A stretch of DNA of 64,000 nt, taken from positions 194,140 to 258,139 of IMG/VR virus record IMGVR_UViG_2595698548_000001. One strand, given 5' to 3'. How positions within the stretch are numbered: the stretch's first letter is position 1; the number at the start of each line of letters is the position of its first letter. The stretch comes from a virus. Its lineage: Duplodnaviria > Heunggongvirae > Uroviricota > Caudoviricetes. Positions 3,899 to 15,315 of this stretch are shown in pieces. The position numbers and the translations under genes were made by a program. The notes under the pieces were generated by a model. The model was given only the letters and a program-made list of their open reading frames with translations, was not told the origin of the DNA and searched no databases.

Positions 3899-4588
3899 AT
3901 GATTGGTTTGACTCGTATTCCCACGGGCATGATCTTCGCCCCAGGCGAGGCCTCACAGACTGAGGTAGTAGTCGAAGACGATCACCTAAAAGCGGCGGAG
4001 CCTGTTGAGTCTGACATCAGTGAAATCGAGAGCGGGTTCTACGACTGGCAACTCGGCATCCTGACACTCGCCATGTACAACGGAACCGTCATCAAGATCA
4101 GCGGTTTCGCCACTGCCGGTAACATCCCTGCGGGCCCTACAGGTCCGCAAGGTCTGCCTGGTAAAGATGGTAAAGATGGACGTGATGGCAAAGACGGTGC
4201 CAAGGGTCCAGAGGGTTGCCAAGGCCCACAGGGTCCACAGGGTGCTCAAGGTGCTACAGGTCCTGATGGTCGTGATGGGCAGATGGGCCAACAAGGTCCC
4301 CGCGGCTGTCCTGGCCCAAAAGGCCCTCCTGGCGAACGTGGACCAACTGGTCCTATGGGTCCATTGGGTCCGACCGGTCCTAGAGGAGAACAAGGTGCGC
4401 AAGGTGCTCCCGGCGCTCCTGGTCCTGCGGGCACAGTGAACATCATCGTCTCTACTACTGATCCTGGTGCAGTTGGCGCCGGTTGGCTGTGGGTTAATCC
4501 AGGTGCGACAGGTGCCCCGAGCGGTGGTTCTGGTGGCGGCGGTTCTACTACGCCTACTGACCCTCCGATTGGGACGCCATGGCCTTAA
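3899..4588 (+). CDS. collagen-like fibre protein (M-x-GLTR-I/V-P N-terminal family)
   Basis: N-terminus MIGLTRIPTGMI..., about 100 aa of G-X-Y repeats, short C-terminal ..WLWVNPG.. tail. RBS AAGG upstream. Confidence 0.8.
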   Translation: MIGLTRIPTGMIFAPGEASQTEVVVEDDHLKAAEPVESDISEIESGFYDWQLGILTLAMYNGTVIKISGFATAGNIPAGPTGPQGLPGKDGKDGRDGKDGAKGPEGCQGPQGPQGAQGATGPDGRDGQMGQQGPRGCPGPKGPPGERGPTGPMGPLGPTGPRGEQGAQGAPGAPGPAGTVNIIVSTTDPGAVGAGWLWVNPGATGAPSGGSGGGGSTTPTDPPIGTPWP

Positions 4589-4602
4589 GGTAAGGTGAAC
4601 AC

Positions 4603-5124
4603 ATGACAGGCTTGACAAGAGTTCCTCTGAAAATGATCGGTGCCTCAGGGCAGCCCGGCGATGACGTTCGTTTCGACGGACGCGATGTCGCTGTGGTGCC
4701 CAGCACCGAGGACACGAACGACTACGGGCTCACCAGCGGTACGTATGACTCCATCGCTGGACGCCTGACCCTGGTGCTGCGCAACGGCGCCCGCCTCGAA
4801 CTCGACGGGTTCATCACCACTGGCGATATCGGCGTAGGCCCCGCTGGTCCGACAGGCCCCGCAGGCCGCGATGGTCGCGATGGCTTGAACGGCGTAGACG
4901 GCGAGAAGGGCGCCACTGGTTGCCAAGGCCCGGCCGGTCCTCCTGGTCGTCAAGGTCCTCGCGGTGAGCAAGGCATCCCAGGCCCCACGGGCCCCACAGG
5001 CGCTACCGGCCCAACAGGCCCGGCCGGGGAAGACGGCGTTCCGCAAATCTGGATTCAAACAGAAGACCCGGTCATCAAATCCGCAGATCACATAGTCCCC
5101 GGTGCATTGTGGGTGAAGCCGTAA
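4603..5124 (+). CDS. collagen-like fibre protein (same N-terminal family)
   Basis: N-terminus [12 protein letters not shown]..., G-X-Y repeat block, C-terminal ..ALWVKP. RBS AAGGTAAGGTGA upstream. Confidence 0.8.
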
Positions 5125-5136
5125 TGGAGTGACAAC

Positions 5137-8100
5137 ATGAGTCGTCTACGCATTCGAGACGCTAAGAATGTCAAATGGATTGACATTTGCCAGAGCGAAT
5201 GGCGTGTGCGGAACCCAGCCAACACGGGCTGGATTCGTATTACTCCGGCGCAGGGCATTAAAGCTCGACACGGTAGCGAGTATTACTGGCTCGACATTGA
5301 CTGTCTTGCAGAAGAAGGGACCGAAGATTGCGGCCAAGACGAATACGGCGGCACACCTGACGGTAAGGGTGAGAACGGCACCGGTCCGGGCAAACCCAGC
5401 ACTGGAGGCGGAGACGGCTCCGGTGGAGGTGGCGATGGCGGCGGTGGAGACGGAGGCGGTAACGGCGGAGACAATGGCTCTAACAACGGCGGCTCTGGCG
5501 ATGGCGGCGGTATCGATAACGGTCCGGATAGTCCGAGCTTCAACGATGGCGACTCCGGCTCCGGTAACGGCGGTAGCGGCTGGCAAGAAGATGCTCCGTA
5601 CCCACCTGGCTTCGACCTGCCTGACTCTGATGGGGACGGTGCCGGCGACAAGGGCGATTGCATCTACCGCCCGGGTTTGAACACCTGTGAGACCAAGCAA
5701 CCTATCGTTGTGCGTCCTGACATGGACTGCGGTACGAAGCGTCCCGGATCGTGGGACTGCCCGTTCGAGTGCCCGGATTCTGTTTCTGGCTCTGGCGCTG
5801 GTATTTCCGAGTTCTACATCAACATGGGCACCGCCTCGGGTAACATCAAGTTCCCGTGGATTGCCTCCGCTGGCGCTAGCTTCGATATTTACTATCGCGG
5901 CAAGCGGGTCGCAACAACCAGCGGCCAGCGTAAAGGCACTGGCGCCTTGACCTTCGTGTTCAACCCGGTGAACAACGACCCGATGCTGTTTGTCCGCGTG
6001 CGCTCCACGTACAAGACCAACACTTGGACGTTGCAGATCAAGTGCGTTGGCGATGACGACGATGACGGCACCATCAACAACCCGCGTCCGTGCCACGGCA
6101 CCTTCGAAGTCAAGAAAGAAGGCGGGCAAGGCACCTACGAGTTCTACCATAACCTTGGGCCGACTGCTGGTCTGACGGACATCCACTATCAAATGTGGAA
6201 TCAGCCAGACAAGATGGAAGTGTTCAACCATGCGGGCGTGTTGATTGCATCGACTGGTGGTTACGTTGCAGGCGAAGCTCACCTGAAATTTCAGCACACG
6301 CCTGGCGGGTCGAACATGGTGCGCGTGCGCATTACTGCGCGTGACCCAGGTACGTCTTGGATTTACCTGATCACCTGCCCAGGTGAAGACGGTAGCGAAG
6401 ATAACCCGCGTGAGTGTTCCGACACCTCAGCAGTTAAGTCTGGCGGTGCAGGCGTCACAGATACCTTCATCGACATGGGTTCGACTGCTGGTAAAGTTGG
6501 CATCCGCTACCAGATGTGGCAGATTCCGGACAAACTGGACGTCTATCAAGAGGGTACGCTCGTTGCGACAACCGGAGGTCCTGTTACGGGAGACCACTGG
6601 CTGTACTTCGACTACGATCCGAGTCGCGGTCAGAAGATTCAGGTGCGCGTCACTGGCTCGGGCGCCACGTCGTGGTCGTTCCTGCATACGTGCCCCGGGG
6701 ATGAAGACCCGAATATCAGTGTCAACTCGCCAAGCGTGCGTGAGGGTGCTGCAGGTGAGTCTCCGCAACTGTGCTGGACCATCACAATGGACAAGCCTCA
6801 GTCGCAACCAGTGACAGTGGACTACGCAACTGGCGGCGGCAACGCAAACCCGGTCGCTGCACAAGGTCGCATCTTGGCTTCCGACCAGTTCAACAATCCG
6901 TTCATCGCCGTTGTTGATCAAGCAAACTTCGGCAAAGTTGCGTTCGATGGGGGCTTCCCCAAGTTCTACAACTCGACCTACGTTGCACCGCAGCCGCCTC
7001 CGACGGGCGCACAGGTGTTCAACACATGGTGGCGTACTGCCGGTGCTGAGTTCTACACCAGCCCGAGCGGAATTCCTAGTGGTAGTGAAGCAAACGCATG
7101 GGCGTACAGTGCTGGGTCGGGCAACATCTCGTCCACAGTGAACTCCGCGAACATCATTTCCTTCATTTCGCCCACGGCATACGATAGCTATACCTTCGAG
7201 GCTACGCTGTCTTCTTCTGCTGCGGACGACGACATGATCGGCTTGGTTGCCGCATACGCTCGCGTCGGTAGTGACAACTACCAGATCATCGCTTCTCGCC
7301 AACGCGGCGGGTTGAACGCCTTCGGTAGCAACTGGTCGCTGGCTCTGGTGAAAAACAACTCTGTCGTGAAAGTGCTGGCGTCGAACGCTGTTGGCGGGAC
7401 GGGAAACTGGAACGGAACACGCACCCGCGTTCGTGTGCAGCGCGATTGTAACCAGATCAACGTCTGGTGCTCGGCTTACGGTAGCGAGACAATCTCGGAA
7501 AGCACCTTGCTGCAGGCTGACCTGACCAGTGAAGATTTGGCAGTGTTCGGCGGTGCTGCTACTCGCTGGGGCTTCACTGCCCAGTCGCAAGAGAACGCCA
7601 CGTTCAGCAGCATCTTCGTGTCTGGTATTGGCTTGCCGCCTGCGTTTACCTACCTGAAGAACATCGCCCTGTGGTCGCGTAAACCCGGCAACAGCAAAGC
7701 GTTGATTTTGTGCGACTCGGCTACGGTTAACCAGTACAACCTGGGCACTGCCGGAATGGCCTTCGGTGTTGGTATGCCGGAGACCCTGCGTTCTGTAGGC
7801 TTCGATGTCACTATGAGGTACCTGCCGGATATGGGGAACAAGATCACTGCCGCGGACTTGGCAGACTACGGCTTCTTGGTCGTGCTGTCTACAGATCACA
7901 CCGGGGTCAACCACGCGACCGGCACCAGTGCAGCCGTCGTGGCGAACTGGGTGAAGAATGGCGGCGGTTTGTTTATCGTCACTGACCACGACGTGTTTCA
8001 AGCTACTGCGAATGCTTTGGCTGCTCCGTACAACATCGAGTTCTACGCTTCCGTCGATCGGAGCCCGGTGAGTGTTGGTCAGATCATCGCGTCGCATGGT

Positions 8101-8790
8101 GATCACCCGGCTTGGGAAGGGTTGAGTTGTAAGTCGATCCCAGCTGGCGGTAGTGAAGGTGCCATTCGCATCAAGCAAGTGCGCAGTGATTACAGCCCGA
8201 TTTCAGGTACTGTTACCTTCGCGCCTGGTGAAACGTCCAAGGAAGTGTGTGCGCCGATCATCGGCAACGACACGCAGGATGGTGACCGTACCATCAACAT
8301 GAACATCAGCAATGCGTCCAAGGGAAACATCACAGTGCCCACAGGTACTGGGACGATCATCGACGACGATAGTGCGCTGTGCCGGCAAAATCCGCAGGGC
8401 GTAGTGTATGAAAGAGCTGGTGGTGGAGATGGTGCTTACCTGATGCACGTTCAGCCTGATTACAACTGTGCGGCAGGCAACACGAAGTACCTGATGATGG
8501 CGAACTTGACGTTCCCGTACACGGGCCCGTACGTTATCACCATGACGTCCGACGATGACTTCGAGCTGTACATCGACTGTAAGAAGGTTGCGTCTGGTCC
8601 GATCGGTACTCGGCAGTACACCGTGAACATCAACGCAGGTACACGCAACGTCATCCTTCGATACTTGAACGTGCCAAACTGTACGCCTGGTTACGCTGGC
8701 TTTACCGCCCGCTACAACAACCTGATGGTGTACTCGACGCGCGCTGCTGATTGGAAGGGTCAAGCCAATAGCATTGGAGAAATCGAGTAA
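5137..8790 (+). CDS. giant multidomain adhesin-like fibre protein (Calx-beta x2, PA14-like, GATase1/ThuA-like, 3 Cys-bounded beta repeats)
   Basis: RBS GGAGTGA. Domain order: ~56-aa N-terminal domain, Gly/Asp low-complexity linker, three ~100-aa repeats bounded by Cys (..HYQMWNQPDKMEVFN.. / ..RYQMWQIPDKLDVYQ..), a Calx-beta-like motif (VTVDYATGGGNA), a GATase1/ThuA-like segment (..GGGLFIVTDHD..), a second Calx-beta-like segment (..TGTGTIIDDD), and a PA14-like C-terminus (..YTGPYVITMTSDDDFELYIDCKKV..). Confidence 0.8.
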   Translation: MSRLRIRDAKNVKWIDICQSEWRVRNPANTGWIRITPAQGIKARHGSEYYWLDIDCLAEEGTEDCGQDEYGGTPDGKGENGTGPGKPSTGGGDGSGGGGDGGGGDGGGNGGDNGSNNGGSGDGGGIDNGPDSPSFNDGDSGSGNGGSGWQEDAPYPPGFDLPDSDGDGAGDKGDCIYRPGLNTCETKQPIVVRPDMDCGTKRPGSWDCPFECPDSVSGSGAGISEFYINMGTASGNIKFPWIASAGASFDIYYRGKRVATTSGQRKGTGALTFVFNPVNNDPMLFVRVRSTYKTNTWTLQIKCVGDDDDDGTINNPRPCHGTFEVKKEGGQGTYEFYHNLGPTAGLTDIHYQMWNQPDKMEVFNHAGVLIASTGGYVAGEAHLKFQHTPGGSNMVRVRITARDPGTSWIYLITCPGEDGSEDNPRECSDTSAVKSGGAGVTDTFIDMGSTAGKVGIRYQMWQIPDKLDVYQEGTLVATTGGPVTGDHWLYFDYDPSRGQKIQVRVTGSGATSWSFLHTCPGDEDPNISVNSPSVREGAAGESPQLCWTITMDKPQSQPVTVDYATGGGNANPVAAQGRILASDQFNNPFIAVVDQANFGKVAFDGGFPKFYNSTYVAPQPPPTGAQVFNTWWRTAGAEFYTSPSGIPSGSEANAWAYSAGSGNISSTVNSANIISFISPTAYDSYTFEATLSSSAADDDMIGLVAAYARVGSDNYQIIASRQRGGLNAFGSNWSLALVKNNSVVKVLASNAVGGTGNWNGTRTRVRVQRDCNQINVWCSAYGSETISESTLLQADLTSEDLAVFGGAATRWGFTAQSQENATFSSIFVSGIGLPPAFTYLKNIALWSRKPGNSKALILCDSATVNQYNLGTAGMAFGVGMPETLRSVGFDVTMRYLPDMGNKITAADLADYGFLVVLSTDHTGVNHATGTSAAVVANWVKNGGGLFIVTDHDVFQATANALAAPYNIEFYASVDRSPVSVGQIIASHGDHPAWEGLSCKSIPAGGSEGAIRIKQVRSDYSPISGTVTFAPGETSKEVCAPIIGNDTQDGDRTINMNISNASKGNITVPTGTGTIIDDDSALCRQNPQGVVYERAGGGDGAYLMHVQPDYNCAAGNTKYLMMANLTFPYTGPYVITMTSDDDFELYIDCKKVASGPIGTRQYTVNINAGTRNVILRYLNVPNCTPGYAGFTARYNNLMVYSTRAADWKGQANSIGEIE

Positions 8791-8960
8791 TGGCTGTCAG
8801 ACTGCGAGTTCGTCAATCGACTAGCAGTCCGTGGATCGAGAACTTCGATAAGCTCGGGTGGAAGCTAAGGAATAGCTCCAATTCTGGATGGATTCAGATG
8901 CACCCGGGCAACACGAAAGTCCGCTCTTCGGACAACACACGCTGGCTCAATGTGAAGTGA
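8790..8960 (+). CDS. unannotated small protein (56 aa), paralog of the N-terminal domain of the 5137..8790 protein
   Basis: ATG overlaps the TAA of the upstream gene (TAATGG). Translation [56 protein letters not shown] aligns with MSRLRIRDAKNVKWIDICQSEWRVRNPANTGWIRITPAQGIKARHGSEYYWLDIDC. It falls below the 60-aa cutoff of the ORF track. Confidence 0.5.
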
Positions 8961-8967
8961 GGAAACT

Positions 8968-9774
8968 ATGAGTGGATTGACAAGAATCCCGCTCCCGATG
9001 ATCGATCCTGGCGCTGGCGTCGCTAACGACGAGGTGAAATTCAACGGAGAGCGCCTCGAATTGCAAAACCCGGACGACGATACCGATGTCCAGGTCACGG
9101 AAGGTGTGTACGACCCAGAGACAGGCACGTTGACTCTGCGCAAAGCAGACAACTCTGTGCTCAACATTCGCGGCTTCTTGACCAAGGCGAGTGTCGGTGT
9201 AGGCCCCACTGGCCCAACAGGTCCTCAGGGTAAGCCTGGTATCAACGGGCGCAACGGCAAAGATGGTCGCGTAGGTGATCAAGGCTGCGTGGGGCCCAAA
9301 GGTGATCCAGGCCCAGCAGGCCCGACGGGCCCAGCAGGTCCGGGTGGCGGTATCGGTGCTCAGGGCGCTACTGGCCCAACTGGTCCAACTGGTCCGACAG
9401 GCCCTGCTGGACTTGACGGTAAGGCACCAACGTTCGGCGTAGGCGAAGTGGATGCTTACGAGTTCTACGAGAATCACAGCCTTAAATGTTGGGGCCGATT
9501 CACGTCGGAAGATGCGGCAGTTTTCCAGCGCGTCGTATTCCCGGAAGCCTTCGAGCGAGACAAGCCACGGGTCATGCTTCTGCAATTCATCGACCCGAAG
9601 AGCAACGTCAAGAACGCCGTGCGCATCGACCGTATCAACAAAGGCAACGCCGAGTTGAGTGTGGATGCTTCCATGTTGGAGCAAGAATCCGATGGTGAAG
9701 GCGGCACGCGACCTGTAGCTGCTACCGGTTGGGACTTCTACTGGTTCGTCATCGGCAGCGACGCCGACGCATAA
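8968..9774 (+). CDS. collagen-like fibre protein (M-x-GLTR-I/V-P family) with globular C-terminal domain
   Basis: N-terminus [12 protein letters not shown]..., G-X-Y block, about 110-aa C-terminal domain. RBS GTGAGGAAA. Confidence 0.8.
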
Positions 9775-9784
9775 GGAGAAAGCT

Positions 9785-10237
9785 ATGGCTTTACCAGCGG
9801 CATACTACCAACTTGTCTATGATGAGAAGACAGGTGACGTGCTGTCGTTCTGGAACCCAATGAGGGGCGAGTGTCCTGACTCGCCTTACATTGAAGTTTC
9901 CCTGGAGGACCACGCTCGCGTACAGCCTGCACCGTTCAAGTTCCGCGTCATCGATAAGCGCCTGGTTGAAGTGAGCGATATACCAAAAGATGAACGTCCG
10001 AAGCGTCCAGCTGTCTCCGAAGCGATCATCGCGGGTCTTGTAATCGACGGCGTGTGCTACGCGCTCGACCCGAAAGCTCTGGCTGTGTTGACGCTCGATC
10101 TGTCCAGAGGCTCCAAGACCTGCAGGGCAATCGCCCACACTCCGACAGGAAACCAACTGGTAACCCTGCCAAAGGAAGATGCCAAGAACGTAGCCTCGAT
10201 GATAGCCGACCACTTGGTGGCTCTACATTGTGGATAA
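9785..10237 (+). CDS. hypothetical protein
   Basis: RBS AAGGAGA 6 nt upstream of the ATG. Confidence 0.6.
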   Translation: MALPAAYYQLVYDEKTGDVLSFWNPMRGECPDSPYIEVSLEDHARVQPAPFKFRVIDKRLVEVSDIPKDERPKRPAVSEAIIAGLVIDGVCYALDPKALAVLTLDLSRGSKTCRAIAHTPTGNQLVTLPKEDAKNVASMIADHLVALHCG

Positions 10238-10268
10238 TTTACTCGCAGTGTACATCGAGGTGTGAACC

Positions 10269-11090
10269 ATGTCTCTTCCTACTAGCAGGCTTATCCAGGC
10301 CGCCGTGGATCGCGGCCTGACTGTGGCCACGCCCGTTCTTCTCACCATGGACGGGCCGGAACACATTCGCGTAAACGTCATCATCAGCCACGCGGAGCCC
10401 GTCTCTGTCGTGGCTCCTTTGGACTTGCTGTGGATTAACCCTGACACAGGCACTCCGCTGCGCCGTGTCAGTCGTGCCCAGTCGCAAGACTTCGTGCATA
10501 CCTGGGAAGTCGCGGACGAGACATCGTTCTGGTTGGCTCAATCCTGGGATGAACCACGACCGAACGACCAAGACTTTCAGGAGCTCAACCGAAACATCGG
10601 CAACACGCACGGGCTGATCCTGGCCGATATCGGCGCGCTCGGTGTTGAAGGTGGAGACCTGACAGGACCATTGCGTCCACGAGTCTTGGAAGTCGGAGAC
10701 GACTACGCACCTACGGAAGCGGTACCTCGCTCGTTCGTCGAAAAGCTGACCATGGCGGCGCAAAGCCTAGCAGCTTCGGTTAGCCAACAGCTCACCAGCC
10801 TGCGTAACCAAGTTACGTCTGTGCGAAACCGCGTGACGGTAGTCGAAGACGAGTTGGAAAACATCCAGCTCGGTGACGGCACGCCACGATACAAACATGA
10901 CCAAGTGGAACCCTCACTTGAGTGGATCATCGTTCACAACCTACACGTACCGGACGTCACAGTTCGTGCCGTGCGGGAAGATGGGACGCTGATGATTCCA
11001 GCCACGGAAACAATGATCGATGAAGATACGCTGCGCCTGACGTTTGCCGAAGCTCGCCAGGGACGCGCCGTGATTCTCGGCATAAGGTGA
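10269..11090 (+). CDS. tail/fibre-associated protein with C-terminal W-x-I-x-H-N-L beta-domain
   Basis: RBS GAGGTG. The C-terminal ~65 aa (..SLEWIIVHNLHVPDVTVRAV..RAVILG) share a motif with the 13617, 15316 and 15912 proteins. Confidence 0.6.
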   Translation: MSLPTSRLIQAAVDRGLTVATPVLLTMDGPEHIRVNVIISHAEPVSVVAPLDLLWINPDTGTPLRRVSRAQSQDFVHTWEVADETSFWLAQSWDEPRPNDQDFQELNRNIGNTHGLILADIGALGVEGGDLTGPLRPRVLEVGDDYAPTEAVPRSFVEKLTMAAQSLAASVSQQLTSLRNQVTSVRNRVTVVEDELENIQLGDGTPRYKHDQVEPSLEWIIVHNLHVPDVTVRAVREDGTLMIPATETMIDEDTLRLTFAEARQGRAVILGIR

Positions 11091-11095
11091 CGAAC

Positions 11096-11956
11096 ATGAG
11101 AAGGCTTTTGGCGATAGGCTCGCTAATTTACTGCGTAATGGCAAATGCCCAAAGCCTTTTGGTTGTGCAGTCGGCAACGGTCAATGACCTGTACGGCAAC
11201 ACGATCATCGCAAAGATTCTTGAAGACCAAAACGGCAGTGTCGACCACATTGCCGTCTTCAACGCTCGGCAGTTCACGCATGATCGCTCGGCACACTCGC
11301 GGGAAATCCTGTCAAAGGTTTTGCGCACGTATGTCGAGCACTCAAAGCCGAGCGCCCTTCTGTTTCTCGGAGAGCCAATCGTGGACGTCGGGATTCCAAC
11401 TCAGTACAGCTCTGTGCTGATAGGTTCCACGTCATTTAACACAACGGCCCTCAAGGCAGCTTCCATCTACAACAAGCACTGGTCACCTGTTTACGTCATA
11501 AGCGACAACTCCGTGTTGGCGAACCTTCGCTTGCAGGAGCTGCGCCGACAACTCGATGGCATCGAGCTGGACGTGACTACGGTGTCAACGGTTATCGAGT
11601 ATCGGCAAGCGTTGCTTGACCTGCAAGATCAACCAAAAGGCACCCTGGTGCTGAACGCCTTTAGCTTGTTGGATGAGTGGCAAGACTCTGTGGGATTCGC
11701 CGAAATCGAAAACCTTCTGGTTAAGACAAATCGGCGTCACGTGGATGTAGGTATTTGTCGAAACGGGTTTAAGACGACTCTGGCTATCGGGCCGACGCCT
11801 GCAGAGGCGGCAGCTCTGGCTACTGCGCCATACTCCCAAGCATCAAACTCCCACATCAGCTCGTGTGCAAACCTGTCCCGTGTCGTACCAAAGTGGCTGG
11901 GGTTATACCGCGCAACGATGGGCAAATACGACATAGTGGAAGGCGGCAACCAATGA
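11096..11956 (+). CDS. secreted (signal-peptide) protein of unknown function
   Basis: ATG at 11096 follows RBS AAGGTGA; the track's start at 11087 is a GTG. The N-terminus MRRLLAIGSLIYCVMANAQS is a typical Sec signal. Local GC is lower than in the flanking genes. Confidence 0.6.
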   Translation: MRRLLAIGSLIYCVMANAQSLLVVQSATVNDLYGNTIIAKILEDQNGSVDHIAVFNARQFTHDRSAHSREILSKVLRTYVEHSKPSALLFLGEPIVDVGIPTQYSSVLIGSTSFNTTALKAASIYNKHWSPVYVISDNSVLANLRLQELRRQLDGIELDVTTVSTVIEYRQALLDLQDQPKGTLVLNAFSLLDEWQDSVGFAEIENLLVKTNRRHVDVGICRNGFKTTLAIGPTPAEAAALATAPYSQASNSHISSCANLSRVVPKWLGLYRATMGKYDIVEGGNQ

Positions 11957-12237
11957 TCCGACCCTCACATTCGACCATATCGCGTATCGTCATTCTTGCC
12001 CTTTTGGCTGCGGTAGCTTTCATCTTCGTGAAGTACAGCTCCCGTAGTGACAACCGCGAAGCAATCGTATACTCCTCCTTGCAGTGCGTTCAAAGCGTCT
12101 GCGTGGAGAACAAGGCTACCGGAGAGATTTGCTCCTACAGGGAGCCGAGAATTTCCGAGATTCTTATTGAGACGGACAAAGACAACGCCAACGTCAGAAA
12201 CATAAGAGTTATACCGAGCGATGACCGATGCCAATGA
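11953..12237 (+). CDS. small membrane-anchored protein with 4-Cys extracytoplasmic domain
   Basis: Internal ATG at 11953 (MIRPSHS..) overlaps the upstream stop. It has one N-terminal transmembrane segment. Confidence 0.45.
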   Translation: MIRPSHSTISRIVILALLAAVAFIFVKYSSRSDNREAIVYSSLQCVQSVCVENKATGEICSYREPRISEILIETDKDNANVRNIRVIPSDDRCQ

Positions 12238-12808: not shown

Positions 12809-13600
12809 ATGGCCTATGTGCTCAACAACATACGGTTTCGATCTGTCAGTTCAAAGGCGCTGGAGAGGTACTACAACTCCAAGTCGTTCATCCTGAATGT
12901 CCTGATCGACGAACAAAGACAGTTCAGCCAAGTAGCCCGCGAAATCCTGCTGCTGTTTTTCAACAGCTATTCGGACTGGGCTATCAAGGTGGAGAGCCTG
13001 TTGTTGAACCGAAGCGTTTTGGAGGAGACGGACCTCAAGATCATCTTCCAGCGCTTCGGTGAAGTAGTCGAATCCAACAAGAGCATTTTCACCATTCACG
13101 GTGACGTGTTTTTGCCGCAGTTCGTAGACGTTTGGGGTGCTGTGCATAAGCACGTGCCTCTGAACTTCAAGCGCAAGGTTCGGCAAACGGTGGGCCTCTC
13201 TCAGCTTGAGGCCTATCCGCTTATCATCGATGCGTTGGTCGATGCCCTTCAATCCACGCTGTACGAGCTGTACGAAGTGGACTGCCTTCTAGGGTCTAAC
13301 CTGGTGGGCAACAAGATCAGCACCAACGCGTCCATGCAGGACAACCTGATCACGTACATTGACGATGGTGACCTGGAATATTACCGAGCCACTGGGGTCT
13401 TCATCGCCAAAGAGAGAATCACTCACTACTTGGACACGGTAATCCTGCCGGACATCGTTGTCCCTGTGGTCGTGAAAAACTACACGGAAGAAAAAATTGC
13501 GTTGAAAAACGGCTTGGTAGTTGGGGATCAGCCATTCGCACGGCTGCTAACCGACATGTTAGAAAACCCCCGCATTAAAATCGTTGAGATCGCATCCTGA
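12809..13600 (+). CDS. hypothetical cytoplasmic protein
   Basis: ATG at 12809. Its composition is lower in GC than the neighbouring fibre genes. Confidence 0.55.
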   Translation: MAYVLNNIRFRSVSSKALERYYNSKSFILNVLIDEQRQFSQVAREILLLFFNSYSDWAIKVESLLLNRSVLEETDLKIIFQRFGEVVESNKSIFTIHGDVFLPQFVDVWGAVHKHVPLNFKRKVRQTVGLSQLEAYPLIIDALVDALQSTLYELYEVDCLLGSNLVGNKISTNASMQDNLITYIDDGDLEYYRATGVFIAKERITHYLDTVILPDIVVPVVVKNYTEEKIALKNGLVVGDQPFARLLTDMLENPRIKIVEIAS

Positions 13601-13616
13601 TCCTGGAGTAATCAAC

Positions 13617-15299
13617 ATGCTCAAGAATGGCAACATCACGCTGGTTGGCGAGATTCGTGGCCTCAAGCCGCAGCGCCTGGCAGCAGACCCCACTGGTGGT
13701 GACCTCAAGGAAGGTCTGGTCTGGGTCAACACTACCGACAAAGCCCTGAAGTGGTACGACGGCACCCAGACCCTCACCATCGCCACTGGCGGCGCACTGG
13801 ACGAATACCTGTCGCTGGCCGGCGGCACCATGACCGGCCCGCTGGTTCTCGCCGCAGACGCAGCCAACCCGCTCGAAGCTACTCCGCTGCAACAAGTCGA
13901 GTCGCTGGTGGGTGCGAAGCAGGACACCATCACCGGTGCTGCTACTACCATCACCAGCGCCGATCTGACCGTCAGTCGTGCCATCGTCTCCGACGAAAAC
14001 GGCAAGGTCGCAGTATCCGCAGTCACTGCCGTCGAACTCGCCCACCTGAGCGGCGTGACCGACAACGTGCAGACGCAGATCGACCTCAAGCAGGATGATC
14101 TGGGCTACGTTCCGGTGAACAAGGCTGGCGATGCGCTGACCGGTGACCTGAACTTCGGCGGCACCAGCACGCTGAAAAACCTGGCTGCACCTGTCGATCC
14201 GACCGATGCCGTGCGTCTCATCGACATCGACAACCTGAAAGCTGACCTCGACTTCCAGGCTGACGTGCTGGCTGTCCAGCTGGATGACACGCTGGTTCCG
14301 ACCGAAGACCCGCTGCCGGATGCCCAGGTACGCTACATCGTCACTGACGCAGCCAACCTGAACGTCGCGTTCGGTACTATCGCTGGCCTGGAAGATGGCG
14401 ACATCATCCAGAAGTCCGGTGCGGACTTCGTGGTTGCCTATGATGTGTCCGTCAAAGGTCCGGGCGCTCTTGTCTGGGATCGTGGCGTCGGCAAGTTCAT
14501 GAAGTACGACGGCACCAACTGGACCGAACACGGCGGCCTGAGCGGCGTTACCGTATCGGCCGGTCTGCTCAAAGAAGGCAACACCATCAGCGTCAAGTTC
14601 GGTGCCGGTGTCGCCAACCTGCCGACTGGCGAAGTGGGTATCGATGTTCGTCCAGACAAAGGTCTGGAACTCGTCGATCCGACCACTGGTGACGCTTCGA
14701 CTGCCAGTGACGCCGTACTGGGCGTTAAAGTCGGTGCTTCCCTCGATGTCGGTGCCGGTGGCATCATCGTCAAGGCTGCCGGCGTGAACGAAACCCATCT
14801 GGCGACCAGCGTTGCCGGTCAGGGCCTCGAAGGCGGTGAAGGTACTGCGCTGACCGTCAAGCTCGACGGCACCACTCTCGTCAAGTCTGCAAACGGCCTG
14901 GCTCTGGGTGACATCAGCGCTACCTACCTGAAGCTCGACACTGCGTCGACCATCACCGCTCAAGTGGCGGTCCCGGCTCCGACTGCTGACGCCAGCATCG
15001 CCAACAAGCTGTACGCTGACCAAGGCGACCAGGCGAACGCGGATGCAATCGGCGACCTGTCGACCCGCGTCGATGCCAACCAGTTCGTGTTCGATGGCAC
15101 TGCCGGTGTTGCTCAAGACACCTACAGCATCAACCACAACCTGGGCAACAAGTACGCCGTAGTCGCTGTGTACGACGAAAGCGATGCTCAAATCCTGCCG
15201 GACACCGTCACGCTGACCGACGCCAACAACCTGACTGTCACTCTGGCGACTGCGCAGAAAGTGCGCGTCGTGATCAACGGGAAGAAGGCAGCCGCGTAA
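13617..15299 (+). CDS. tail fibre protein
   Basis: ATG at 13617 follows RBS GGAG; the track start at 13584 is a TTG inside the previous gene. The protein is rich in Gly/Ala/Thr/Val beta-repeats. Its C-terminal ..TYSINHNLGNKYAVVAVYD.. domain matches the domain recurring in four other proteins. Codon usage is strongly biased. Confidence 0.75.
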   Translation: MLKNGNITLVGEIRGLKPQRLAADPTGGDLKEGLVWVNTTDKALKWYDGTQTLTIATGGALDEYLSLAGGTMTGPLVLAADAANPLEATPLQQVESLVGAKQDTITGAATTITSADLTVSRAIVSDENGKVAVSAVTAVELAHLSGVTDNVQTQIDLKQDDLGYVPVNKAGDALTGDLNFGGTSTLKNLAAPVDPTDAVRLIDIDNLKADLDFQADVLAVQLDDTLVPTEDPLPDAQVRYIVTDAANLNVAFGTIAGLEDGDIIQKSGADFVVAYDVSVKGPGALVWDRGVGKFMKYDGTNWTEHGGLSGVTVSAGLLKEGNTISVKFGAGVANLPTGEVGIDVRPDKGLELVDPTTGDASTASDAVLGVKVGASLDVGAGGIIVKAAGVNETHLATSVAGQGLEGGEGTALTVKLDGTTLVKSANGLALGDISATYLKLDTASTITAQVAVPAPTADASIANKLYADQGDQANADAIGDLSTRVDANQFVFDGTAGVAQDTYSINHNLGNKYAVVAVYDESDAQILPDTVTLTDANNLTVTLATAQKVRVVINGKKAAA

Positions 15300-15315
15300 A
15301 CCCAAGGGGGCCTAA

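Follow-up and report, generated by a model that had tools for sequence, protein, structure and literature searches.

We analyzed a 64,000-nucleotide stretch of DNA from a tailed virus, referred to here as the window (positions 194,140 to 258,139 of IMG/VR record IMGVR_UViG_2595698548_000001), with a focus on gp249 (PaBG_00249), a 56-codon gene at window positions 8790 to 8960 on the plus strand whose product is a free-standing triple beta-hairpin domain. Window bases 4000 to 12000 match, at 100% identity, Pseudomonas phage PaBG (KF147891.1 / NC_022096.1), a jumbo myovirus with a 258-kb genome. The frame opens with an ATG at 8790 that overlaps the TAA of the preceding gene, gp248 (8788 to 8790), and closes with a TGA at 8958 to 8960, and its 56-amino-acid translation is identical to that given in the original prediction, which had been made from the sequence alone. 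A GGAG motif resembling a Shine-Dalgarno sequence can be read at 8776 to 8779 on the same strand, 10 nucleotides (nt) 5' of the ATG and within the end of gp248. In most relatives of the small gene, GAGG, GGAG, or AGGAG likewise occurs a few to about 10 nt before the ATG, regardless of the spacing to the upstream stop, and a few relatives have only a weak motif. A scan of the region for promoters and terminators gave no signal above shuffled expectation. The gene had been taken to be unannotated, which is not the case: it is present as a coding sequence for a "hypothetical protein" both in GenBank KF147891.1 (PaBG_00249, QKE11220.1) and in RefSeq (YP_009829456.1, O152_gp237). This entry probably dates from the re-annotation of PaBG in 2020 (PMC7412058), given that its QKE accession is later in the series than the AGS accessions of its neighbors.

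The gene lies in a module of fiber genes that are all encoded on the plus strand. On the upstream side are two collagen-like stalks, gp246 (3899 to 4588; 229 amino acids) and the shorter gp247 (4603 to 5124; 173 amino acids), which share a tip motif of the pattern "..T.DP....G.xWVxP". In gp246 this motif (TTDPGAVGAGWLWVNP) is followed by a 28-residue Gly/Pro-rich tail, and gp247, which starts with the N-domain LTRVPLKMI followed by collagen repeats, carries it at its very C terminus. Next comes gp248 (PaBG_00248; 5137 to 8790), a giant putative tail-fiber protein or adhesin of 1,217 amino acids that matches phrog_26008 (E = 6e-212). It runs from an N-terminal triple beta-hairpin domain (residues 1 to 56, encoded at 5137 to 5304), which is paralogous to gp249 and has a Cys18/Cys56 pair, through a Gly/Ser/Asp-rich linker and repeated beta domains to Calx-beta-like and PA14-like regions. 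Downstream of gp249 follows gp250 (8968 to 9774), a collagen-like fiber of 268 amino acids with the N-domain LTRIPLPMI, collagen repeats, and a C-terminal globular domain (WGRF...FP..F...WDFYWFVIG), and then gp251 (9785 to 10237), a hypothetical protein of 150 amino acids that follows the fiber in all relatives (131 to 162 amino acids). The Pfam profile Collagen (PF01391) matches gp246, gp247, and gp250 with E values of 2e-16, 9e-15, and 3.6e-9, respectively, all above the 27.2-bit cutoff, and gp249 is without Gly-X-Y collagen repeats.

Homologs of gp249 form 14 clusters at 73 to 86% identity in a database of 5.8 billion proteins; they stem from metagenomic contigs of PaBG-like phages, the longest being 245 kb. 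Exact conservation of the length of 56 amino acids was found in 13 of the 14, and the other was called with an upstream start that adds a 19-residue N-terminal extension. Between PaBG and five relatives, nonsynonymous differences (pN, 0.12 to 0.21) are far fewer than synonymous ones (pS, 0.70 to 0.95, at saturation), and variable columns are distributed over codon positions 1, 2, and 3 as 27, 12, and 48, a pattern that points to strong purifying selection. Identity to the relatives is 79 to 82% for gp249 versus 25 to 78% for gp245, gp246, gp247, gp248, gp250, and gp251, and in the most distant relative compared it is still 78.6% versus 25 to 59% for the other module proteins; as judged from these identities, gp249 is the best-conserved protein of the fiber module. 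On the PaBG-like contigs the small gene lies between a variable giant (753 to 1,414 amino acids) and a collagen-like fiber of 264 to 269 amino acids, and versions in the same place are found in phage NCTB (83 amino acids) and in Dickeya phage JA29 (JA29_094, 66 amino acids, a member of phrog_29040). The original prediction had named a lack of conservation in related genomes as grounds for rejection, a test that the gene passes: in the PaBG-like relatives both frame and length are kept under purifying selection. Its further suggestion that homologous small open reading frames (ORFs) might follow the adhesin gene in relatives applies to the PaBG-like phages, and not to NCTB, JA29, and several metagenomic lineages, where other genes lie upstream. 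Since the gene is conserved across the PaBG-like, NCTB, and Dickeya lineages, it is neither a chance ORF nor a decaying remnant, and we have high confidence that gp249 is genuine and functional and that its product is a free-standing connector domain made of three hairpins.

To delineate the family, we searched 1.84 billion representative proteins with a profile of the small proteins and the gp248 N terminus (E ≤ 1e-3), which returned 80 clusters only. In about 48 of these the domain starts at residue 1 to 25 of proteins of 200 to 1,600 amino acids; about 20 are free-standing (54 to 85 amino acids), and a few hold the domain internally or at the C terminus. The family alignment consists of three tandem units of about 18 residues, with the consensus sequences rLrVRd..Ns.WIDnF, GWkVRNaaNTGWIrM, and NTKVRsaDNT.WL.V and the general form x-[KR]-V-R-[ND]-x-x-N-[TS]-x-W-[IL]-x-V. 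Some members have near-perfect repeats (e.g., MSDAKVRNAADGAWITLTTANTKIRNAANTGWIPASAENFKVRNATNTGWLSF), and comparison of the three repeat profiles by hhalign gave P values of 5e-4 to 7e-5. Four family positions (R8, W15, R45, and W52) are at least 90% conserved. gp249 belongs to this family by profile similarity, by its three [KR]-x-R ... N ... W-[IL] repeats, and by the common predicted fold: its AlphaFold2 model, obtained with a 76-sequence alignment, features short strands forming three hairpins and has a mean predicted local distance difference test score (pLDDT) of 94.3, with 52 of the 56 residues at 90 or higher (the model from an earlier run with a 15-sequence alignment, at a pLDDT of 67, was discarded). 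Proteins with this domain contain Calx-beta, legume-lectin, SASA-type esterase, Ig, and PT-HINT domains and, given this content together with the Calx-beta-like and PA14-like regions of gp248, are of the adhesin or receptor-binding type.

Outside the family, the domain has few matches. In BFVD, the gp249 model matches family members only, namely, a 55-amino-acid protein and the N terminus of a 673-amino-acid Dickeya JA11 protein (template modeling [TM] score of 0.70 for both), and no fold match was found in the PDB. There was no Pfam match at E ≤ 1 and no NCBIfam match at E ≤ 0.1. Against PDB sequences, the family profile weakly matched the hairpin found in designed symmetric beta-trefoils (E = 3.6e-4 when summed, the single stretches not being significant). 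Among PHROG families, phrog_29040 is matched by JA29_094 (E = 1e-23) and weakly by gp249 (E = 0.007) and the NCTB small protein (E = 0.0035). This family, which comprises small proteins of Dickeya JA-type phages, and phrog_26008, to which JA29_096 and gp248 belong, are both catalogued as being of unknown function, and their paralogy, repeat architecture, and fiber linkage are not recorded in the libraries searched. A scan of genome contigs with close patterns found no bacterial copy of the domain, and no further copies exist in the 64-kb window or, at the sensitivity of tblastn, elsewhere in the PaBG genome. In a survey of jumbo-phage domains (PMC7824862), the terms searched turned up no mention of the domain. 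It appears to be new, as do its repeat architecture and, as described below, its fusion to a stalk tip and its obligate pairing with a fiber.

Three members of the family merit separate mention. The BFVD entry A0A8S5UGA3 (Myoviridae sp. ctshb19), a free-standing protein of 55 amino acids that is 41% identical to gp249, bears the UniProt name "Pectinacetylesterase," which is almost certainly a transferred mislabel, perhaps originating from a domain-carrying esterase. The copies in phages Lu11 and HRDY3 form a divergent subfamily with "GGWCVY" in repeat 2. Lu11_0326 (positions 5977 to 6153 of locus L004; loci compared in this work are numbered with the prefix L) is a free-standing domain among small hypothetical genes, beside a predicted membrane protein of 74 amino acids. 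In HRDY3 (XDJ14936.1; L005, 4312 to 5517), the domain is at the C terminus of a "virion structural protein" of 401 amino acids, the body of which resembles the middle of gp248. Prompted by this fusion, we considered programmed frameshifting or readthrough between gp248 and gp249 and rejected it: there is no slippery site, the frame relation of the two genes differs among relatives (+2, 0, or +1, as determined by hand), the gaps range from -1 to about 200 nt, and L014 has an extra in-frame stop.

The original prediction had described gp249 as a position-by-position copy of the N-terminal domain of the giant. The homology holds, and the strict alignment does not, since single-residue gaps are needed. 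By BLASTP, residues 4 to 55 of gp249 align with residues 3 to 54 of the 1,217-residue gp248 with 34% identity and 58% positives over 53 residues, two one-residue gaps, and an E value of 2e-9 in this single comparison. A hidden Markov model (HMM) built solely from 37 free-standing small homologs scores the gp248 N terminus at 30.7 bits (E = 1e-8), while the best of 1,140 shuffled controls reached 11.7 bits. On this sequence evidence, gp249 and the gp248 N terminus are homologous. The two types of copies differ, however, in a pair of cysteines at the positions of C18 and C56 of gp248, which are both present in 43 of 49 N-terminal fused copies and in none of the 37 genuine free-standing ones. gp249, being among the latter, falls outside the fused subgroup. 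Free-standing copies have a signature of their own (NF..GGW and NTKVRS, with the chain ending right after the last strand). Because they lack the Cys pair and carry this signature, they appear to form an old, separate paralogous lineage, so that, by sequence, gp249 is an ancient paralog within a subgroup of small proteins rather than a recent duplicate.

What the domain might do is best seen in the giants. In PaBG-like phages, their first 56 residues are 54 to 77% identical, versus 39 to 55% for the remainder, which is swapped or strongly diverged. Because the N terminus is conserved while the rest is exchanged, it behaves like an attachment module. The most direct hint at the partner comes from P0087, a metagenomic protein of 647 amino acids. 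Its residues 2 to 188 align to the whole of gp247 (E = 3e-25), including N-domain, collagen repeats, and tip motif (..YTDPGAVGAGVMWVNP), and about 12 residues past this stalk tip it continues with a hairpin domain (201 to 254), followed by a distal region. The genes for gp247 and gp248 are adjacent in PaBG (12-nt gap), as are the equivalent stalk-giant pairs in NCTB (BN7874_133 and then the giant, which actually starts at an ATG 9 nt past the stalk stop) and in Dickeya JA29 (JA29_097 and then JA29_096). As far as its sequence tells, P0087 joins the counterparts of gp247 and gp248 in one chain and is a "Rosetta-stone" fusion of these two genes. Since it fuses the stalk tip directly to the domain, we infer that the hairpin domain is a joint on the tip of a collagen-like stalk. 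This suggests that the role of the domain is to hold distal modules on stalk tips and that gp247 is the partner of a hairpin domain. The idea that the giant's N terminus serves attachment is thus supported by its conservation and by the place of the domain in P0087, while the docking partner is likely to be a collagen-like stalk tip and not the baseplate, as had been suggested. In PaBG and in all five PaBG-like loci scanned, there are exactly two tip-bearing stalks (gp246 and gp247 type) and two hairpin proteins (the giant and the small one), and inspection of the NCTB sequence gave the same numbers.

Several further observations concern the giant and the stalks. Directly after the hairpin domain of gp248, residues of about 60 to 175 (window positions 5310 to 5660) form a long low-complexity linker rich in Gly, Ser, Asp, and Asn. 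No other stretch of the gene has a higher GC content or a stronger GC skew. The C terminus of the giant (window positions 8500 to 8790) is modular: the proteins of PaBG, L008, and L012 end in "...WKGQANSIGEIE," and those of L006, L009, L010, and L013 have an extra Cys-containing module ending in "...GGTWD....C..P." In L007, a stop is followed by about 200 nt that still code for remnants of the Cys-containing module, reflecting a frameshift or an assembly error. Two annotation errors are probable in NCTB (LT598654.1; L003, 793 to 4920 and 7974 to 8225): the annotated start of BN7874_132 ("large intein domain protein") is at 1006, and an ATG at 793 restores the complete N-terminal hairpin domain, while BN7874_129, the small gene, is annotated with 38 amino acids (8109 to 8225), and the conserved ORF has 83, starting at 7974. 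Between the gp246- and gp247-type stalk genes, some PaBG-like relatives harbor a gene for an HNH_3-type endonuclease of 273 to 296 amino acids (L006, 4361 to 5209; L007, 4652 to 5515; L009, 4627 to 5517; L017, 1317 to 2138) that is absent from this site in PaBG, L008, L010, and L012. The inserted gene resembles those of mobile homing endonucleases. Very long antisense ORFs on the minus strand opposite gp248 and gp257 (6427 to 8178, 5146 to 6297, and 13575 to 15305, with 583, 383, and 576 amino acids, respectively) are of a kind typical of GC-rich coding DNA and are not supported as genes. Further downstream, two RefSeq names looked doubtful: "HNH endonuclease" for 10269 to 11090 (hypothetical in GenBank) and "ABC transporter" for 12809 to 13600 (a membrane protein in GenBank).

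Unlike its upstream neighbor, the downstream neighbor of the small gene is constant. In every one of the about 18 lineages that we examined for this pairing (among them PaBG, six PaBG-like clusters, L017, L018, L022, L023, L024, NCTB, JA29, and L028), the small gene or domain directly precedes a gene for a collagen-like fiber, with a spacing from a 4-nt overlap to a 29-nt gap. This includes L028, where a domain of the small type is fused to the C terminus of an upstream protein of 290 amino acids (P0059) and still lies next to the fiber gene. Upstream lies, depending on the lineage, a giant that carries the hairpin domain, a Calx-beta giant that lacks it, or a protein of 159 to 181 amino acids. 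In the reverse direction, five of five IMG/VR loci retrieved by the fiber's C-terminal domain alone, four of them new, had the small ORF directly upstream. The fibers concerned are alike in their N-domain (LT[RK]xP..MI), in having collagen repeats, and in a conserved C-terminal globular domain whose last residues are WDF[YF]W.x[IL]G. In gp250 (residues 154 to 268) and its homologs, this domain of about 110 residues (WGR[FY]...FP..F...WDF[YF]W..[IL]G) has no Pfam or NCBIfam match. It is probably the receptor-binding tip and may resemble tail-fiber tip domains that end in W.AIG. The GAGGA Shine-Dalgarno motif of gp250 (8959 to 8963, plus strand) overlaps the TGA of gp249, 7 nt separating this stop from the gp250 ATG. 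The junction sequence "AAGTGAG" was seen in all relatives compared at this site, and the full GAGGA was seen in about half of them. Because the ribosome-binding site of gp250 overlaps the stop of gp249, the sequence suggests translational coupling of the two genes. That the small gene is tied to the gp250-type fiber and not to the giant favors a partner or adaptor of the fiber over a regulator of the giant. gp249 is not a split-off N terminus of gp250, given that gp250 has a complete N-domain of its own, homologous to those of gp246 and gp247, and that no hairpin-then-collagen fusion occurs among the 80 clusters.

Taken together, we favor, with a probability of roughly 0.5, the interpretation that gp249 is an adaptor subunit that provides a joint for the gp250 fiber in trans, by the type of stalk-tip contact proposed for the giant's N terminus and most simply on gp246. 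gp249 would be a product of the late structural module that consists of a single connector domain of about 55 residues. At the N terminus of gp248 and of other variable proteins of the receptor-binding type, this domain would attach the distal module to a short trimeric collagen-like stalk, at the C-terminal tip of the latter; gp249, probably cotranslated with the downstream gp250, would supply the joint as a separate chain. It may dock on the second tip-bearing stalk, of the gp246 type, and thereby link or terminate this stalk in association with the gp250 fiber. Several points weigh against this interpretation. The surfaces bound by gp249 and its presence in the virion are both inferred, and the pairing of gp246 with gp249 derives solely from the 2:2 count of stalks and hairpin proteins. 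No fusion of the small domain to its accompanying fiber occurs in any of the 80 clusters. The Lu11/HRDY3 subfamily is found outside any recognizable fiber module, and on the P0087 contig, no small gene occurs within 8 kb. Finally, the structural proteome of PaBG, which consists of 14 Coomassie bands from a 10% gel, does not include gp248 to gp250 (PMC7412058), which is uninformative for gp249, as a protein of 6.4 kDa would escape such a gel. As sources of proteomic evidence, fENko-Kae01 proved to be an unrelated phage, and the literature on fHe-Yen9-02 and Y3 yielded no usable paper.

The original prediction had suggested instead that gp249 could cap unused docking sites or compete with the giant as a regulator of stoichiometry. 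In this alternative, gp249, as an attachment domain without cargo, would fill docking sites of the giant's type, thereby sealing stalk tips left without an adhesin or limiting the number of giants, and would have no physical link to gp250. It is true that gp249 consists of this domain alone and shares it, including the conserved core residues, with the giant's N terminus. In addition, two tip-bearing stalks face only one giant, and the absence of fusions to the fiber would fit a stoichiometry unlike that of the fiber chains. Nevertheless, a cap or competitor of the giant would leave unexplained why the gene stays next to a gp250-type fiber even where the upstream gene is no hairpin-bearing giant, why its end shares a ribosome-binding region with gp250 in PaBG, and why it is conserved above every structural neighbor. 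The loss of the Cys pair and the signature of its own likewise point to a specialized role distinct from that of the giant's domain. We consider this proposal unlikely, although it is the strongest of the alternatives.

Alternatively, gp249 could be an assembly factor absent from mature particles, which would transiently bind nascent gp250 or stalk chains to register or trimerize the collagen-like helix. Such a role would agree with the tight coupling upstream of the fiber gene in all lineages, the very small size of gp249, and its absence from the virion proteins detected in a very shallow proteome. However, known phage fiber chaperones are usually encoded downstream of their fiber, a position held here by gp251 (possibly a fiber assembly factor, judging by context only, since it has no Pfam, PHROG, or NCBIfam match), whereas gp249 lies upstream of gp250. 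Moreover, gp249 has no match to Caudo_TAP/Tfa or any other Pfam or NCBIfam chaperone family, and large structural-type proteins contain the domain permanently, P0087 in mid-chain. We consider an assembly factor quite improbable.

We regard as very unlikely that the Trp/Arg/Asn-rich hairpin triplet is a minimal lectin that binds a ligand such as a glycan, with gp249 decorating the fiber or the host surface. Tandem hairpins of about 18 to 20 residues with a conserved aromatic residue are indeed reminiscent of beta-trefoil (QxW)3 lectins and of choline- or cell-wall-binding repeats. The weak matches to designed beta-trefoils are the only PDB sequence matches of the family profile, and the carriers are of a carbohydrate-active or adhesin type. 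Yet gp249 lacks the features of a beta-trefoil lectin, i.e., a length of about 120 to 150 amino acids, 12 strands in three four-stranded units, and a structural match, and there is neither a Pfam lectin or CW_binding match at E ≤ 1 nor a fold match in the PDB. Most fused copies start at residue 1 to 25, the usual place of attachment rather than receptor-binding domains, and the position directly past the stalk tip in P0087 favors a joint. That gp249 is a chance ORF or a decaying N terminus left behind by recombinational replacement of the adhesin would suit its shortness, its overlap with the upstream stop, and a module with exchanged C-terminal parts, but it is hardly credible in view of a length and frame kept despite saturated synonymous change and low pN, the conservation across three lineages, the confident folded model, and the gene's own ribosome-binding motif.

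The proposed adaptor has partial counterparts in known systems. Modular receptor-binding proteins with conserved N-terminal anchors occur in T7-like tail fibers, in the head-binding domains of P22-type tailspikes, and in the branched tailspikes of CBA120, G7C, and RaK2-like phages. As in these, a short conserved N terminus is combined with freely exchanged distal parts and, in our interpretation, fastens them to another fiber component. The hairpin domain differs in its unrelated sequence and predicted fold (as it has no Pfam, NCBIfam, or PDB match), in its presumed partner, the C-terminal tip of a collagen-like stalk, and in that an anchor-only version is conserved as a separate gene. The hinge protein gp35 of the T4 long tail fiber, which joins two trimeric half-fibers, resembles the role proposed for gp249 in being a small separate subunit at the joint between fiber segments that is encoded in the fiber gene cluster; gp35 is, however, much larger, no sequence relationship to it is expected, and the joint role of gp249 is deduced from gene order and one fusion protein. 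A third parallel is provided by PAAR-repeat proteins, which cap the trimeric gp5/VgrG spike and occur either bare or extended with effector domains. The hairpin domain is also a small repeat-built domain that is either free-standing or the attachment end of large variable proteins, and its threefold repetition could match a trimeric partner, but gp249 has no PAAR motif and no match to the Pfam profile PAAR_motif at E ≤ 1. A strict one-per-trimer cap is argued against by P0087, which would carry the domain three times per trimer.

It is nonetheless tempting to speculate that the three hairpins form a monomeric plug with pseudo-threefold symmetry on the end of the collagen triple helix and that gp249 is a universal joint without cargo that mounts gp250 on gp246, a refinement of the adaptor model that we hold to be rather improbable. 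If true, it would resolve the mismatch between a trimeric stalk and monomeric cargo, as PAAR does for spikes, and gp250 would be mounted on gp246 either end to end or as a branch. Segmented or branched collagen-like fibers in "hairy" jumbo phages would then be built in a manner not known before, using a fold without a solved relative.

Host recognition in the "hairy" jumbo phages PaBG, Lu11, and NCTB and those of Dickeya involves several collagen-like fibers and giant adhesins. Among these proteins, a previously undescribed connector domain marks the attachment end of many exchangeable adhesins. While the gp249 gene itself was already present in databases with no function assigned, the combination of the best-conserved small protein with an obligate pairing to one fiber leads to a concrete and testable assembly model. 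The sequence of the domain can also be used to search related metagenomic phages for receptor-binding proteins, and the domain is a candidate docking module for swapping such proteins.

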